Below, one piece after another: positions 1,341 to 12,188 of a stretch of DNA of 14,974 nt. Every line of letters starts with the position of its first letter. Position 1 is the first letter of the stretch. The stretch lies in UHGV virus genome UHGV-0084874; one strand, written 5' to 3'. The notes below the pieces were generated by a model that saw only the letters and a program-made list of their open reading frames with translations, had not been told where the DNA came from and searched no databases. Made by a program: the position numbers and the translations under genes. Source of the stretch: a virus.

Positions 1341-1661
1341 TTTAAGCTATGTGGCGAAGTAACCACTCTTAACATGGTATTTATTTTTTTACGATCGTAA
1401 AGCATTCTGGAAAAAATTTTTAAGACTTACATCATGCTTTCATAACTTGAGCGCCGTATATAGCCACTGAACGGGAGCTGGTAAATAAGATTCCCCTCAG
1501 ACACGAACAGCCATCTAAGTATGGAATTGCAAGACCAATGAAACTTGATGTTTCTTAAGCAATCTTCAAACAACAAACAGCCTCGTTACAGTTGTCAAGC
1601 TATCTTGACGCCATTAGAAACGATGATGAAAATAGACACTCCTACACACAGAGGATATATC

Positions 1662-2819
1662 ATGGAAAACTTTGCAAATAAGTTAAAATCTCACGCAGAG
1701 CATGTTGCAAACATGGGGTGCTTCTGTAATACAGAGGAAACAACCAAACAGGCATTAATCATGCCTTTTCTAGATATTTTAGGCTTTACTCCATACGACC
1801 CACGAAAAGTGAAGGCAGAGTATAGCGCAGACTTCCCAGGGGTAAAGATTAACGAACGAGTTGATTACGCTTTATTTTGTCATGATGTTCCCGTGATGTT
1901 TATTGAAGCAAAATCATTTTCAGAAAAAATTGACAATCATTGCCCACAGCTTTCTAGATATTTCAACTCTACCCCAGAAGTCACCATTTCTGCTATAACA
2001 AATGGAATTGAATGGCGTTTTTTTACGGATCTAAAACAAAAAAACATTATGGATTCGTCTCCTTTCTTAAAATTAAGAATGGACTCACTTAACGATTCAG
2101 ATATTTCACAGTTATTCCGCTTCAGATATGACAAATTTAAGCCAGAGGCATTAAGGACGCTTGCAGAGGAAAGCGTCTATCTAAACGCATTCACAAAAAC
2201 CATAAGCTCAAGTCTTAGAGAGGTTGATCCTGAATTTGTCAGATATGTTGCCAGTCGTTCAAATATCGAGCGTCAACTAAACCAGCGATTCCTTGAATCT
2301 GTCACGCCACTGGTCAAACAAGCTGTAAAACGAGCAGTAAGTGCCATGGTGGTTTCTGGCCTTTCAACACAACCACCTACAGAATCTGCAGAGGATGTGG
2401 AAAAGTCTTCTGTAGATACCGATATCGTCAATGAAGATAACCCCAATATAATAACCACAAAGAAAGAATTAGAACTTTTCGAAAGAATAAAGCAAATCAT
2501 TCAAACAGAAGATAATATTGAATACAAAGATACCGAATCATACTTTGGAATTCTTTTAGATGGAAAAAGTAATAGATGGATTTTAAGATTTTACGACAAA
2601 AAATCATCCTTTATCCTGCTACCGATATCGTTCAACGAAATTCAATTAAACGAAATAAAAAGGGCTAGACTGGAAACTGATGGTCGAAAAATCCACATAA
2701 CAAATCCAGAAGACATACTGCGTATATCTGGATTAATTCTAGATGCGTTTGAGTATGTAAAAAACGATGACAATTTCAGGAGAGGGACAAAAACAACTCT
2801 CTCAGAAAACATCGAATAA
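1662..2819 (+). CDS. PD-(D/E)xK nuclease-domain protein (type I restriction HsdR N-terminal-like fold) with an uncharacterised ~200-aa C-terminal region; candidate defence moron
   Basis: 424-codon ORF in markedly AT-rich DNA, far longer than chance allows there. Start re-assigned to the ATG at 1662 (MENFANKLK...), which has a GAGGA RBS 8 nt upstream. The N-terminal segment ...TKQALIMPFLDILG...VDYALF...VMFIEAKSF... gives the E / D / E-x-K pattern of HsdR_N-type nucleases. It is on the opposite strand to all flanking phage genes. Confidence 0.75.
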   Translation: MENFANKLKSHAEHVANMGCFCNTEETTKQALIMPFLDILGFTPYDPRKVKAEYSADFPGVKINERVDYALFCHDVPVMFIEAKSFSEKIDNHCPQLSRYFNSTPEVTISAITNGIEWRFFTDLKQKNIMDSSPFLKLRMDSLNDSDISQLFRFRYDKFKPEALRTLAEESVYLNAFTKTISSSLREVDPEFVRYVASRSNIERQLNQRFLESVTPLVKQAVKRAVSAMVVSGLSTQPPTESAEDVEKSSVDTDIVNEDNPNIITTKKELELFERIKQIIQTEDNIEYKDTESYFGILLDGKSNRWILRFYDKKSSFILLPISFNEIQLNEIKRARLETDGRKIHITNPEDILRISGLILDAFEYVKNDDNFRRGTKTTLSENIE

Positions 2820-2926: not shown

Positions 2927-3310
2927 CTACATAATTCGTTCTACATATCTGTCCATCTCCAGCCGGATATCAAGCATCATCAAAATACCATCAATCACCC
3001 CTTCGGCTTTCTGAAGACGTTTACCAATGCAGGTGTCAGAGCATCTATGCTTACGCGCCAGACTCATAAAAGTCATTCCAATGACATAATAATCCACCAA
3101 TAAATCATGCAAATCACTGTTGTTTTTTTTCAAGCGGGCCATGCATCCACAAACGATCATCGCGTCATCGTCGCAACATTGCGGACGAGACTTAACTTTT
3201 GAAGAGATTAGTCCTTTAAATCCAGCAGCAATCGGTGACCAAGTCACATCCTCATGATTGTTTGCAACCCATGCTCCCCAGCGTTCGAGAACCATCTGAA
3301 TATCACGCAT
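2927..3310 (-). CDS. Late-gene antiterminator Q (phage 82 / DLP12 QuuD-like family)
   Basis: 127 aa from the ATG at 3308-3310 ([14 protein letters not shown]...), with a GGAG RBS 7 nt upstream; the ORF-track start at 3325 is a TTG. Cys-rich segment [17 protein letters not shown] is consistent with the zinc-binding Q family. Identification is from memory of the family, not a search. Confidence 0.6.
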
Positions 3311-3327
3311 CAACTTTCTCCACAAAA

Positions 3328-4347
3328 TCAGGACAGCACACCAATCGCCAGCGCGCGATCGATAAAACGAAATATCAGCTCCAGTTGGGAACCATACTTC
3401 TCTTCAAATGCCACGGTATCCGCATGCAGTCCGTCATGGTGTTTTCTGCACAAAGGCAACACAAAAAGGTCATGCGCTTTTGTACCCATTCCACCCTGAC
3501 CATGACCAATCAGGTGATGAGGATCGTCGGCTGGCTTACCACAACATGCACACGGCTGCGTCTTAACCCAGCGCGTGTACTTTTCATTAACCCAGCGACG
3601 ACGTTTTGGGCGTAACATAAAAGACTCCGGCGACTCCGGATCCACTTTCAGCGCCAGCACCTTTTTCGCCTTATCCTGGATGATGCTGGTGGCAGTAACC
3701 GAAGGCACAAGGTCACTTTCCCGGGTGACAGACGGCACAACAGGCTTCGGTAATCTCAGTGCCTTACGGGCTGCACTTTCCGGTAAGGCATCCGCCAGGT
3801 CATTACGAATCAGCCACCAGCACAGTTCCGGCATTGTCACAACGTGACTGTCATCAAAACCAAGATCACGGCGCACAACAGATAACACCCAGCGGGCACA
3901 GTTATCCGTTGCCATTGCTTCCAGCCGTTCCGTGAACTGGTCACGGAGAAGATTGTCACAGTGCCAGCACAGACGGATTGCACCCGGCGCGTGTCGCATT
4001 GTGGTCATGTTCTCGCTGTGCCATCCGGAATGAGGCCACTGACAGCCCTTTTCACGAAGTAACCAGCTTTCAAGACATTCCACCCCACCAGTACAACGAA
4101 TAACTGCCTCATTGCGGAACACGGCCCGAACGGCAGGATCATCCGCCAGCGGTTGTGATGCTGCCGGAACGGCACCGCTGGCGAAAGATGAATAACGTTC
4201 CGGCTCAGGCTCCAGCAGGACACGCCCCTGCATAAACAGGGGCATCAGCTCTGAACCGGGCCTGAACAATACAATCCCCATACGCGGGGCAATTTCAGGG
4301 GTCAGCAGTGCTCTCACGGTCACCTCAGCAAACGATATTGAATGCAT
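3328..4347 (-). CDS. DUF968-family protein (YdfU/YfdN-like) with HNH-like Cys/His motif
   Basis: 339-aa ORF. C-terminal segment [44 protein letters not shown] is a CxxC...HH...HH arrangement typical of DUF968/HNH-like lambdoid proteins. Internal PSVT repeats. Confidence 0.65.
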
Positions 4348-8451: not shown

Positions 8452-9596
8452 TTGCGCCCCCTTACCTCTGAAGGGTTCAGCGACAAATTTATGAGACTGG
8501 CCAGTAGCGCCGCGTCGTTGATGCGGTCATACAGACTTACAGCCAGCGGGGATTCGGCTTTTGCCAACATGGGATAAAGCTGCTGCAGCCAGACCTGATG
8601 AATTGATGAAATGTAGGAATAGAGAACGCTGGCGTTATGTGCAACGTCGCTCAGTACAGAGGGATTTGAAAGCTGTTTCTCCATCTGGTTAAAGGCATTG
8701 ATGTATGCCTCTTTGAACTGGGCAGCACGTTTACCCGTGAAACCCATAGCAAGAAACGCAAAGCCGTCGCGGGTTATTTGATAGCAAGGTAGTTTGCGGC
8801 CTGTGCAATCGGTGTAATCACTCACCGAAAAATTGCGGGAAGTGAATGATGCAGAGCATTCAAGCGTGCGGATCTTTTTCAGTACATCGTCATGACGTTT
8901 GGAGAAGAAGTTGGCAACAGCCAGGGATGAAGTAACAGCCTGACCATCAACAATGGCAATTTCAGGTTGAGTGAGGGTTGGGATCGTAGCCATGATGGCA
9001 GCCTCCGTTGACTGTGGAAAACTTCCACCACCGGAGCTGCGAAACTCACTGGTGGCAGACTGAACAGGGTTCGCAGTACCGGCGTCAACGGAGACCGGCG
9101 AGCCTTTCGGCTCCCCTGCCCAGCCCACCATAATTCTGGCGTGCGTGAGCGCGGACGATAAAAAAGACGCTGGCGCGTCATATATCGCCGTTGACAATTC
9201 CGGGCTGCGACCCCCGGCACCCGCTTTATAAGGTGCCTGAACAGTGTAACGTCCCGGAATGGCAGAATCAATATGCTGGTGGTCCTTCACACTCAACAAA
9301 ATCACGCCTGAATTTCCACAAAGGACTAAAGCACTCATGCGGGTAGTCTTTGCGAAGATAGATAACGCGCTGTGTTTCTGGCTCCCAACGAATAACATGG
9401 ACATAAAGCCCTCTTCCGTCACGAAACCAGCGGTTAAGTTCCTGCACAACTCGCCCCCCACAGTCAGGTAAAGTTCTCTGTGGTTACTTACAGCCAGGTG
9501 ATTTGGTAATCTGCATTCATGCCGTAACAACAGGTGTTCAGCGACGCTGACCACCAGCTGTTGCGACAAACGGTTATTTGCCGTTAAACTATTCAT
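8448..9596 (-). CDS. Rha-family phage regulatory protein (antirepressor-like) with ~200-aa N-terminal extension
   Basis: C-terminal half (IAIVDGQAVTSSLAVANFFSKRHDDVLKKIRTL...GKRAAQFKEAYINAFNQMEKQL) matches the Rha family. The full-length start at 9596 overlaps the upstream stop and has a GGAGA RBS. A second in-frame ATG near 8993 has a strong GGAGG RBS and would give a canonical ~181-aa Rha protein. Confidence 0.62.
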   Translation of the reverse strand: MNSLTANNRLSQQLVVSVAEHLLLRHECRLPNHLAVSNHRELYLTVGGELCRNLTAGFVTEEGFMSMLFVGSQKHSALSIFAKTTRMSALVLCGNSGVILLSVKDHQHIDSAIPGRYTVQAPYKAGAGGRSPELSTAIYDAPASFLSSALTHARIMVGWAGEPKGSPVSVDAGTANPVQSATSEFRSSGGGSFPQSTEAAIMATIPTLTQPEIAIVDGQAVTSSLAVANFFSKRHDDVLKKIRTLECSASFTSRNFSVSDYTDCTGRKLPCYQITRDGFAFLAMGFTGKRAAQFKEAYINAFNQMEKQLSNPSVLSDVAHNASVLYSYISSIHQVWLQQLYPMLAKAESPLAVSLYDRINDAALLASLINLSLNPSEVRGRK

Positions 9597-10399: not shown

Positions 10400-10418
10400 A
10401 TGTACCTCCGATATACAT
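10400..10418. promoter_or_regulatory. Operator site (19 bp) ATGTACC-TCCGA-TATACAT
   Basis: Imperfect dyad with TGTACC-type half-sites, overlapping the candidate pR -10 element and the cro leader/RBS. Confidence 0.5.
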
Positions 10419-10444
10419 ATTACATGATTGAGATGAACCTTCAA
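10417..10444 (-). promoter_or_regulatory. Candidate pR (cro promoter)
   Basis: On the minus strand: TTGAAG, 16-nt spacer, TAATAT, placed ~20 nt upstream of the cro RBS. Confidence 0.45.
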
Positions 10445-10449
10445 GATAC

Positions 10450-10468
10450 TTGTACCCTATCGGTACAA
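10450..10468. promoter_or_regulatory. Operator site (19 bp) TTGTACC-CTATC-GGTACAA
   Basis: Perfect 7-5-7 inverted repeat lying between the candidate pR -35 and the cI start. Confidence 0.55.
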
Positions 10469-11159: not shown

Positions 11160-11171
11160 TCAATATTTATA

Positions 11172-11194
11172 ACCTGCTTCGGCAGGTTTTTTTA
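11172..11194 (+). terminator. Rho-independent terminator after cI
   Basis: Stem acctgc/gcaggt (11172-11187) with loop ttcg, followed by ttttttt. Confidence 0.6.
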
Positions 11195-11197
11195 TAC

Positions 11198-11225
11198 TTG
11201 ACAATGTACCCTTGAGATACATAAT
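11198..11225 (+). promoter_or_regulatory. Candidate pL-like early-left promoter with overlapping operator (11204-11222)
   Basis: TTGACA (11198-11203), 16-nt spacer, CATAAT (11220-11225). Overlapping 19-bp site ATGTACC-CTTGA-GATACAT has the same architecture as the cI/cro intergenic operators. Confidence 0.5.
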
Positions 11226-11226
11226 G

Positions 11227-11825
11227 TATCTAAAAGAAACATGTCACAGGCAAGATTAAACAAAATTTGGTTGTAACACGGCGTATGGCACATGCGTCGT
11301 TAGCGGTCTGGGGACGTTAAAGGGGACAATCCACTCCTTGCTCGGGCAAACAAACCAGGTAGCCGGAATGTGCAAGTCAATGAGGATGCTGATAAGACGC
11401 CTAACCAGCGTGGCGATTCGGTTTGACGCCTGGGAAGAGACCAGGGTGCAACGATGAGGGCATTTATGGAACCGCGACAAAGTATGGTGCCGTAACTGGC
11501 TAAGTGCTCTCAGCGTTGTGGTAATCCGCGAAATGGCGCGGCGGTAAGTATGGCGGGGTTATTCCTTCCCCGTTGAGGACACCGGGTTGTCAGGTTGACC
11601 ATACGCTTAAGTGACAAGCCCACCACAACAGCCACTGCTTTGGCGGTACCAGTTTGTACACTTGCTTCCGGCTGGTACCGCTCTTTTTACAAAACAGAGA
11701 AGAGCATCACCGGACGACGGGCTCATAACCCAATCCATCCGGGCGGCTGCCACCGCAGGTGTTCTTCTCTGTTTTGTGGAGAAACCAACCGACCTTGCAG
11801 GGTCGATATGATGAGGAGCAGCAAA
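11227..11825 (+). promoter_or_regulatory. ~600-nt untranslated, highly structured leader between the pL-like promoter and the first early-left gene (candidate cis-regulatory RNA)
   Basis: No plus-strand ORF longer than ~28 codons with an RBS. Multiple GC hairpins (ccgcg-aaatgg-cgcgg; cgggg-ttattcctt-ccccg), a 10-bp stem hairpin followed by a U-tract (11643-11690), a 13-bp perfect inverted repeat (11691-11703 / 11764-11776), and a boxA-like cgctcttttta. Confidence 0.4.
11643..11690 (+). terminator. Candidate intrinsic terminator/attenuator inside the early-left leader
   Basis: 10-bp stem gcggtaccag/ctggtaccgc with 19-nt loop, followed directly by tctttttac. Its 3' side can instead pair with 11700-11705 (gctctt/aagagc), overlapping the next long inverted repeat. 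Confidence 0.35.
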
Positions 11826-12188
11826 ATGGCTAGCGAACGCAGTACTGATGTGCAGACATTTATCGGGGAGCTGGACGGCGGCGTATTTGAAACCAAAATC
11901 GGCGCAGTTCTCAGTGAAGTCGCTTCCGGTGTGATGAACACGAAAACCAAAGGTAAGGTCTCGCTCAACCTGGAAATCGAACCGTTTGATGAGAACCGTG
12001 TGAAAATAAAACACAAACTCTCATATGTTCGCCCGACTAACCGCGGGAAAATTTCTGAAGAAGACACCACCGAAACGCCGATGTATGTCAATCGCGGTGG
12101 TCGCCTGACTATTCTGCAGGAAGACCAGGGACAATTACTGACTCTTGCCGGTGAACCTGACGGAAAACTCCGCGCAGCAGGTCATTAA
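11826..12188 (+). CDS. yfdP: YfdP-like early-left protein (120 aa)
   Basis: ATG at 11826 (MASERSTDVQ...) with a GAGGAG RBS ~8 nt upstream. Length and position match the yfdP-yfdQ-yfdR-yfdS order recalled for CPS-53. The upstream in-frame extension from 11595 is rejected. Confidence 0.55.
   Translation: MASERSTDVQTFIGELDGGVFETKIGAVLSEVASGVMNTKTKGKVSLNLEIEPFDENRVKIKHKLSYVRPTNRGKISEEDTTETPMYVNRGGRLTILQEDQGQLLTLAGEPDGKLRAAGH

Follow-up and report, generated by a model that had tools for sequence, protein, structure and literature searches.

The early-left leader of a lambdoid prophage appears to be a variant of the dicF-type RNA locus headed by an undescribed RNA domain

Introduction

What occupies the start of an early-left transcript when a lambdoid prophage has no annotated N gene? 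The question is raised by positions 11227-11825 of the virus genome UHGV-0084874, a stretch of 14,974 nucleotides (nt) that is called the window here in its full length. This interval lies between a pL-like promoter and yfdP, the first gene of the early-left operon. An earlier note, made from the sequence alone, described it as a hairpin-dense leader and proposed an RNA-based antitermination or attenuation element.

The interval is probably the non-coding 5' part of a repressor-controlled early-left transcript and consists of a series of RNA modules, each with a fold of its own. As a whole, the leader appears to be a dicF-type prophage RNA locus in a variant form, and at its head stands an apparently undescribed RNA domain that is named the A-core here. 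Sequence comparison suggests that the same RNA toolkit recurs in Qin (dicBF operon), Rac (kilR leader), P1 (ban operon), and epsilon15-like phages, where it lies in a small transcription unit. Covariation supports the A-core strongly. The B domain, the DicF-type hairpin, and a long hairpin farther downstream have more limited compensatory support.

A non-coding leader behind a repressor-controlled promoter

The window contains a lambdoid prophage with an e14-like immunity region, made up of the repressor gene ymfK, ymfT, and ymfL. Its early-left operon opens with yfdP-yfdQ-yfdR. A 641-bp stretch of the leader is 100% identical to a prophage adjoining mlrA in E. coli S1-CAM-02-A. In that prophage, RefSeq, annotated by the Prokaryotic Genome Annotation Pipeline (PGAP), has no annotation between the repressor gene and yfdP.

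The codon phase of variable sites was examined in an alignment of the window to 124 segments of related loci. Over the leader interval 11232-11825, variable sites are spread evenly over the three phases (58/53/65, p=0.54), so codon periodicity is absent. The third-position bias is strong in cI, yfdP, and yfdQ (p=2e-16, 2e-7, and 3e-18), with counts of 9/5/34 in yfdP. The leader also carries 39 distinct indels, none of which is a multiple of three; the compared coding genes are free of indels save for one 24-nt deletion. Because the leader lacks a phase bias and its indels never keep the frame, the small open reading frames (ORFs) of some phage records are not taken to be genes. On the same pattern of substitutions and indels, a TTG extension of yfdP, a minus-strand ORF of 74 amino acids, and the small coding sequences annotated in this interval in phages Ayreon, mEp460, and cdtI were rejected. 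Together with the stable hairpins described below, the even phase spread and the frame-breaking indels bear out the earlier description of some 600 nt of hairpin-dense sequence with no credible ORF.

Known RNA families were sought with 4227 Rfam families, at gathering thresholds and permissively, in the leader and in 13 related loci. No Rfam 15 family matches 11227-11825 at gathering thresholds, and only chance-level matches appear at E up to 10. With the empty RefSeq annotation, this leaves the interval free of any RefSeq-annotated protein or known RNA family. Neither ARAGORN nor Rfam finds a tRNA in the window. The claim that the window has no N-like gene holds to the extent that the PGAP annotation names only a Q-family antiterminator; no exhaustive search was made.

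The pL-like promoter reported upstream is confirmed. It consists of TTGACA (11198-11203), a 16-nt spacer, and CATAAT (11220-11225) on the plus strand, an 11/12 match to the sigma-70 consensus, and its counterpart in phage Ayreon is annotated as a promoter. The operator motif ATGTAYC-N5-GRTACAT has five matches, against 1.5 expected by chance. Two of them lie over pL (11204-11222 and 11224-11242), so that promoter and operators together span 11198-11242, and the other three lie in the cI-cro gap (10400-10468). Since these palindromes overlap the promoter and recur between cI and cro, 11198-11225 is read as a repressor-controlled pL. We infer that the transcript starts near 11232.

The A-core, a covarying RNA domain

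The first module is the A-core (11277-11449, plus strand), defined by covariation in an alignment of 30 sequences and by the covariance model R1. It is composed of helices P1 (11279-11284/11294-11299), P2 (11303-11311/11355-11363), P4' (11397-11400/11408-11411), and P5 (11429-11433/11441-11445). Two pseudoknots are proposed, PK1 (11288-11293/11368-11373) and PK2 (11403-11406/11420-11423). The junction contains an ultra-conserved 19-mer, GGUAGCCGGAAUGUGCAAG (11358-11376).

The structure was built by hand and tested on 30 diverse sequences, with slid pairing partners as the control. In the alignment, 97.5% of cells are paired, compared with 27-43% in the slid controls, and 12 pairs show compensatory changes on both sides, compared with 1-4. 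PK2 joins the loop of P4' to a downstream strand. It changes from CACC/GGUG to AACC/GGUU, with 25 C-G to 5 A-U sequences and no exceptions. PK1 is invariant in the alignment. The plus strand is fixed as the functional one by G-U pairs and by how the domain is oriented to promoters and tRNA genes. The fold given by RNAalifold was set aside: it forms GGCACAU/AUGUGCC as a nested helix and thereby breaks the covarying P1 hairpin, so P1 was kept and that pairing is treated as a pseudoknot.

Model R1 scores the A-core of the window at 148.6 bits and finds this single copy there. The junction GGUAGCCGGAAUGUGCAAG was imposed by the first search word, and a second sample of 74 distinct metagenome sequences was therefore drawn with a different anchor. 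In that sample, each position of the 19-mer is at least 93% conserved. None of the 4227 Rfam families matches the A-core, RefSeq leaves it unannotated, and a literature search for the conserved 19-mer returned no paper. The A-core thus appears to be an RNA domain with no described relative. The earlier note had proposed covariation across homologous prophages as a check on its hairpins; the helices of the A-core covary, and the B domain, the DicF-type hairpin, and the long hairpin show compensatory changes as well.

A putative DicF/KilS-type small RNA and its upstream domain

The strong terminator-like hairpin reported at 11643-11690 is real. The full element spans 11636-11690 on the plus strand, with a stem of two perfect 10-bp arms (11643-11652/11672-11681), a 19-nt loop, and then UCUUUUUA, whose U-tract is at 11683-11688. 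It folds with -21.2 kcal/mol (z -3.9) and has the form of an intrinsic terminator.

This hairpin shares UUUGGCGGUAYCAGUUU with DicF and occupies the slot that DicF holds in Qin and KilS in Rac. In a large family of homologues, the base UUGGCGG...CCGCCCUUUUUA is kept, with covariation in the upper stem and a loop that remains CU-rich. The surroundings are also of the DicF type: B, the counterpart of the RNA between ydfC and dicF, precedes the hairpin and its U-tract, and yfdP follows. The Rfam model of DicF (RF00039, threshold 48 bits) scores phage Evi at 76.4 bits and has no match in 11600-11710, even at E up to 10. Because the model does not reach the window copy, the hairpin is filed, from its sequence, as a relative of DicF and KilS rather than as a member of the DicF family. 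On the same comparison, the flagged hairpin is best read as the body of a putative small RNA with its own terminator, not as the terminator arm of an attenuator.

The B domain (11515-11629, plus strand) is a multi-helix RNA. Its closing helix, GUUGUGGU (11515-11522) with ACCACAAC (11622-11629), is a perfect 8-bp repeat, and its apical hairpin carries the CU-rich loop UUAUUCCUU. Its stretch 11515-11621 matches the ydfC-dicF interval of K-12 Qin at 97% identity. In a consensus fold of 19 variants, the closing helix is maintained through U-A/C-G and wobble changes. Between the A-core and B lies the H hairpin (11450-11521, plus strand; minimum free energy -24.6 kcal/mol). Its base CAACGAUGAGrGCA...UGCUCUCAGCGUUGUGG is conserved, and its hypervariable apex is replaced or enlarged by about 100 nt in homologues. 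H has the same position and boundary sequence as the closing helix before B in Qin, and by analogy it is inferred to be an inter-module processing helix of the RNase III type.

DicF of Qin is cut from a polycistronic transcript. The 53-nt form is produced by RNase E, and the 5' end of a 190-nt form by RNase III. DicF is Hfq-dependent and represses ftsZ and other mRNAs. By calculation, the 190-nt form begins within the 3' strand of a closing helix of about 20 bp, just before GGUUGUGG. Since this is the boundary helix, the 190-nt Qin RNA is identified as B plus DicF. KilS, in the 5' untranslated region of kilR in Rac, is a small RNA verified by northern blot and present in K-12 Hfq data from RNA interaction by ligation and sequencing (RIL-seq).

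The window and dicBF of Qin share a repressor-controlled early operon of a lambdoid prophage, the B domain, the string UUUGGCGGUAYCAGUUU, the terminator base ...CCGCyCUUUUU, and downstream protein genes that depend on readthrough. They differ in several respects. The upper stem of the window hairpin is perfect, and its loop and 5' seed differ from those of DicF, so the targets may differ. The window array also follows pL directly, without ydfABC genes, and is headed by an A-core that Qin lacks. With KilS, the window shares the slot upstream of the first early-left gene and the hairpin family; in contrast, the 5' part and loop of KilS are different, and the Rac leader begins with another module and has neither A-core nor B.

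Several further observations concern this part of the leader. In K-12 Qin, the 340-nt gap between ydfC and dicF is unannotated (locus L162, about 3165-3382; NC_000913.3, about 1649165-1649381). Its two structured modules are, in order, a long closing helix bearing a conserved GUCGUUAAAU motif and the B domain. The former is also found before KilS in Rac and before the A-core in Klebsiella and Uetakevirus loci. In the leader, the apical loops of three modules carry CU-rich motifs similar to the anti-Shine-Dalgarno sequence (CUCCUUG, UUCCUU, CUUCC): the P2 apex of the A-core (about 11326-11336), the apical loop of B (about 11558-11566), and the loop of the DicF-type hairpin (about 11655-11669). 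They are kept in homologues with different stems, and an alternative partner for the CUUG of the A-core could be the invariant CAAG of its junction.

Just 5' of the DicF-type hairpin, at 11613-11640, the sequence CAAGCCCACCACAACAGCCACUGC is rich in C and poor in G. It could be a Rho loading site. Such a site would be relevant because lowering NusG, a cofactor of Rho-dependent termination, raises kilR expression, which makes NusG-dependent termination a limit on kilR in Rac.

A proposed course of processing

By analogy with Qin and Rac, RNase III and RNase E would cut the transcript after induction within the double-stranded boundary helices. The cuts would release a long RNA of B plus hairpin and a short DicF/KilS-like small RNA, both of which would end at the hairpin and U-tract terminator (11643-11688). 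The CU-rich loop of the small RNA would pair with the ribosome-binding sites of host mRNAs. Polymerases that pass the terminator would express yfdP and the rest of the operon. In most of its contexts, the A-core lies close to the transcript's 5' end or directly at it. With low confidence, it would act in cis, through terminator or Rho readthrough or through stabilization, and not as a base-pairing small RNA; a role in trans through its conserved CCUUG loop may also exist.

Several points weigh against this account. The Rfam DicF model misses the window hairpin, whose 5' seed and loop depart from DicF. Covariation in the B domain is limited to four compensatory pairs. Part of the invariance of the A-core alignment came from the search patterns, and the independent anchor still supports the 19-mer. 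RNA processing and the part of Hfq are carried over to this prophage from Qin and Rac, and cleavage by RNase III at the H and long hairpins is suggested by analogy and helix length. Finally, the A-core is absent from Qin and Rac and is therefore not needed for the DicF-type part.

The A-core in three phage lineages

Three phage lineages carry the A-core, with one copy per locus: lambdoid phages, P1, and epsilon15-like phages (Uetakevirus). Its lambdoid members are pL leaders of this window, mEp460, mEp390, and Citrobacter prophages. The epsilon15-like members are the podoviruses phiV10, SPN1S, and PAT1 and one Klebsiella phage of the same gene layout, in which the A-core lies in a small transcription unit that opposes the flanking structural genes. 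In P1, it is found directly 3' of a tRNA-Ile gene and 5' of ban, within the C1-controlled ban operon. A scan of one genome per species added 23 loci with the A-core. Apart from one short contig of a metagenome-assembled genome, their labels are Enterobacterales genera; the 24th match is a chance match. Among complete E. coli genomes, 1375 of 5426 (25%) carry the A-core, and it is annotated in none.

A tRNA-Arg(UCU) gene is present in 38 of 188 distinct A-core contexts. It begins at the end of the H hairpin, exactly four bases before GUUGUGG ends. In 16 contexts of the P1 type, the end of a tRNA lies about 16 nt 5' of the A-core. The A-core is thus 5' of tRNA-Arg in Uetakevirus loci and 3' of a tRNA in P1-type loci, in each case in a fixed register. 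In the remaining contexts, the tRNA-Arg slot is filled by B or by another structured domain with an acceptor-like closing helix. These comparisons show that a tRNA gene and a structured domain are alternative occupants of one slot of the array. The fillers at loci L140 and L132 have an acceptor-like stem and a perfect T arm, yet ARAGORN calls no tRNA there. The apex of H is enlarged by about 100 nt in SPN1S (L127, 1615-1712) and F1055 (L159, about 1905-2000), with the T-arm-like motifs CUGGUUCAAUUCCAG and GUCAGUUCGAUUCGGAC.

Structured phage RNAs that are physically linked to tRNA genes, as the A-core is, include GOLLD, ROOL, and the stable RNAs of the T4 tRNA cluster. The A-core has no sequence or model match to these RNAs. 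It differs from them in being much smaller, modular, and confined to Enterobacterales.

BLAST searches against phage genomes show the leader to be a mosaic whose separate pieces recur in unrelated phages. Similarity between phages stops and resumes at the boundary helices CACAAC and GUUGUGG, and GUUGUGG can pair with CAAC-containing strands on either side. From these alignments, modules are judged to be swapped between phages at the short conserved boundary helices. The ban operon of P1 has a B-like domain, an annotated dicF-like terminator, an H-like hairpin, tRNA genes, and the A-core. The genes 3' of the array vary and encode YfdP, a gp49/66-family protein, a Tad2-like anti-defence protein, or Ban. 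In Klebsiella phage ST512-KPC3phi13.3 (L128, 1953-2474), the product of the gene 3' of the array has a Tad2-like domain of the Thoeris anti-defence kind, which hints that RNA arrays may precede accessory or anti-defence cargo.

A different conserved first module (...GGCAGGAC...AAGUAGCCnGCCnGrGGCrUAUGAA...) is found directly after pL in SfV (L002, 2560-2640), ST64B (L160, 1440-1520), Rac (L163, minus strand), and an Actinobacillus phage (L157). It takes the position that the A-core has in the window.

Possible roles of the A-core

The earlier note did not single out 11277-11449, and yet the A-core is the strongest candidate in the leader for a cis-acting role on RNA polymerase. Tentatively, it may be a new structured RNA class that reprograms RNA polymerase or blocks Rho, or a ribozyme or riboswitch tied to tRNA-like processing. 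The general suggestion of RNA-based regulation survives insofar as a conserved structured RNA, with a terminator-type hairpin, stands where lambda has N; the attenuator and boxA particulars do not. Compared with the N/nut system of lambda, the leader has no coding signal, no N is annotated, and its boxA-like string is not conserved.

A narrower proposal is that the A-core is a cis-acting antiterminator, a functional analogue of HK022 put, in which the nascent RNA binds polymerase and replaces N. It would allow readthrough of the DicF-type terminator, Rho sites, and later terminators. HK022 put RNA is about 70 nt long and has two stems, an A9-G35 platform, and a U28 bulge, and G35 of putL is essential. 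It acts in cis, depends on the beta-prime zinc-binding domain for terminator readthrough, and has a second copy in the pR operon. Like put, the A-core is a cis-encoded structured RNA right after pL of an N-less lambdoid phage. It contains a CGGCG/CGUCG helix identical to that of putL and followed by ..AGCG, and the local string CAUGCGUCGnnAGCG in common with putL beside that helix. Its place also fits. The A-core is 45 nt from the inferred pL start, and in some Kosakonia and Buttiauxella loci it lies within a few nt of the -10 element. Terminator-type hairpins stand between it and the downstream genes in lambdoid and Uetakevirus contexts, and a further hairpin 3' of yfdQ carries a terminator annotation. 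A compact pseudoknotted fold with an ultra-conserved junction, and the lack of an annotated N-like gene, agree with such a role. Specialists already suspect RNA-mediated antitermination in related N-less phages: a 2025 paper on phage LLS speculates about it.

The direct comparison with HK022, which the earlier note had recommended, yields no significant similarity. Local alignment of putL with the A-core against shuffles gives p = 0.05-0.12 and that of putR p = 0.70-0.72, whereas the putL-putR control gives p < 0.001. Neither put site significantly resembles the alternative first module of SfV, ST64B, and Rac. Compared with the put fold, the A-core has the CGGCG/CGUCG helix and a CAUG bulge-like string; at the position equivalent to the essential G35 it has U, A, C, or no base, and its topology differs through the pseudoknots. 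The A-core is also larger than put (about 170 nt, with two proposed pseudoknots). Model R1 has no match in HK022, and a second copy is absent from the pR operon of the window. In addition, the A-core is present beside tRNA genes in P1 and podoviruses. Its place in P1 is mid-operon, directly 3' of a tRNA, and the 95 nt or so that separate it from ban hold no terminator. The related N-less phages SfV, ST64B, and Rac carry the different first module. The put-like role is regarded as rather unlikely.

The A-core is improbable as a ligand-sensing riboswitch and as a ribozyme for self-cleavage or processing. In such a role, it would decide between the two helices competing for GUUGUGG or set free the adjoining tRNA or tRNA-like module. 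Conserved junctions, two proposed pseudoknots, and variable peripheral hairpins do resemble aptamer and ribozyme cores. The fixed registers beside tRNA genes in P1-type and Uetakevirus loci, and the ability of GUUGUGG to pair with CAAC strands on either side, also speak for such a role. However, none of the 4227 Rfam families matches, including all known riboswitch and ribozyme classes. The downstream genes are functionally unrelated, and the conserved core is not overlapped by an expression platform.

The mosaic structure allows a still less probable reading, in which the interval is debris of decayed tRNA genes and recombination linkers and only the DicF-like hairpin is functional. T-arm-like motifs (GGUUCAAUUCC, GUUCGAUUC) in some inserts and the coincidence of module boundaries with recombination breakpoints are what one would expect of it. 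Debris would not explain why helices are held by compensatory changes across genera, why the junction is near-invariant in the independently anchored metagenome sequences, or why the element is kept in three unrelated phage lineages.

The long hairpin and the attenuator proposal

Downstream of the DicF-type hairpin is a long three-way hairpin (11689-11777, plus strand; -48.3 kcal/mol, z -7.3) with 25-nt arms that are 84% complementary. The 13-bp perfect inverted repeat seen earlier is at its base and forms its core (11691-11703/11764-11776, with 60 nt between). The fold is kept in 19 variants from E. coli, Salmonella, and Citrobacter, in which G-C pairs are compensated by A-U and one inner (third) hairpin is swapped wholesale. 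By analogy, this hairpin is a candidate double-stranded processing site that would part the RNA array from the yfdP message.

The least tenable proposal is the attenuator, in which the hairpin at 11643-11690, the 13-bp repeat, and a short alternative pairing of 11680-11685 with 11700-11705, possibly with a boxA, would form mutually exclusive structures. All three sequence features exist, including the complementarity of GCTCTT (11680-11685) to AAGAGC (11700-11705), and the hairpin with its U-tract is shaped as an intrinsic terminator. The geometry fails. The partner strand lies 3' of the U-tract and is transcribed only after it, so the pairing cannot block terminator formation or antiterminate. 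The two hairpins are adjacent and coexist in both the minimum free energy and the centroid fold (-69.7 kcal/mol), and the short pairing is thermodynamically irrelevant. Rfam scans find no known aptamer in the leader. The boxA-like string CGCUCUUUUUA is indeed present. It is one C-to-U variant of the terminator base; nearly all homologues read CCGCCCUUUUUA, or U or A at that site. A boxA was rejected on this lack of conservation (CCGCCC, CCGUCC, or CCGACC in homologues).

Neighbouring features of the window

The ymfK/cI-like repressor gene, whose last base is 11159, has its intrinsic terminator at 11171-11188 (plus strand), a hairpin of seven pairs and a T run. The homologous place carries a terminator annotation in phages Ayreon and SfV. 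SfV is 93% identical to the window over 11160-11241, which covers the repressor terminator, the pL promoter, and the operators, and the last 190 nt of the leader are also common to both.

At the other end of the leader (11790-11828, plus strand), the sequence reads as a small hairpin (11790-11805), a Shine-Dalgarno sequence GAGGAG (11813-11818), and the yfdP start codon (11826-11828, placed as in RefSeq). The small hairpin is as stable as its shuffles (z -0.08). yfdP itself, the first protein-coding gene of the early-left operon, spans 11826-12188 on the plus strand, according to the RefSeq annotation of the prophage with the identical leader stretch. K-12 CPS-53 was rejected as a reference for the yfdP leader, as only the last 22 nt are in common.

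Other known RNAs are found elsewhere in the window. Two copies of STnc100 (RF02076) lie downstream of the Q antiterminator gene on the minus strand (152-361 and 639-844; 165.6 and 141.4 bits). By eye, STnc100 has the plan of the pL-leader modules of SfV and ST64B, with a closing helix, GGUGAAU, and CACCGGGAGGCACCCGGCACCA before the 3' strand; the leader itself has no STnc100 match. This likeness suggests that the late leader uses the same RNA toolkit. An annotated type I restriction endonuclease gene (1545-2819, plus strand) separates the Q gene from the STnc100 copies and lies on the strand opposite to STnc100. The C4 antisense RNA (9048-9135, 78.8 bits) and isrK (9160-9236, 58.7 bits) are on the minus strand in the rightward early operon, inside an annotated Rha-family regulator gene, and SfV carries the same pair.

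Significance

DicF and KilS have long been known but isolated; they are placed here in a wider modular RNA toolkit of lambdoid phages, P1, and epsilon15-like phages. An unannotated and strongly covarying RNA domain is brought out in a quarter of complete E. coli genomes. The slot that holds either a tRNA or a structured domain suggests that tRNA-like processing punctuates the transcripts of these phages. How N-less lambdoid phages with a yfdPQR-type early-left operon pass their early terminators becomes testable on one 170-nt element. If the A-core does act as an antiterminator, N-less lambdoid phages, the P1 ban operon, and epsilon15-like phages would use it to pass small-RNA terminators before their early or accessory genes.

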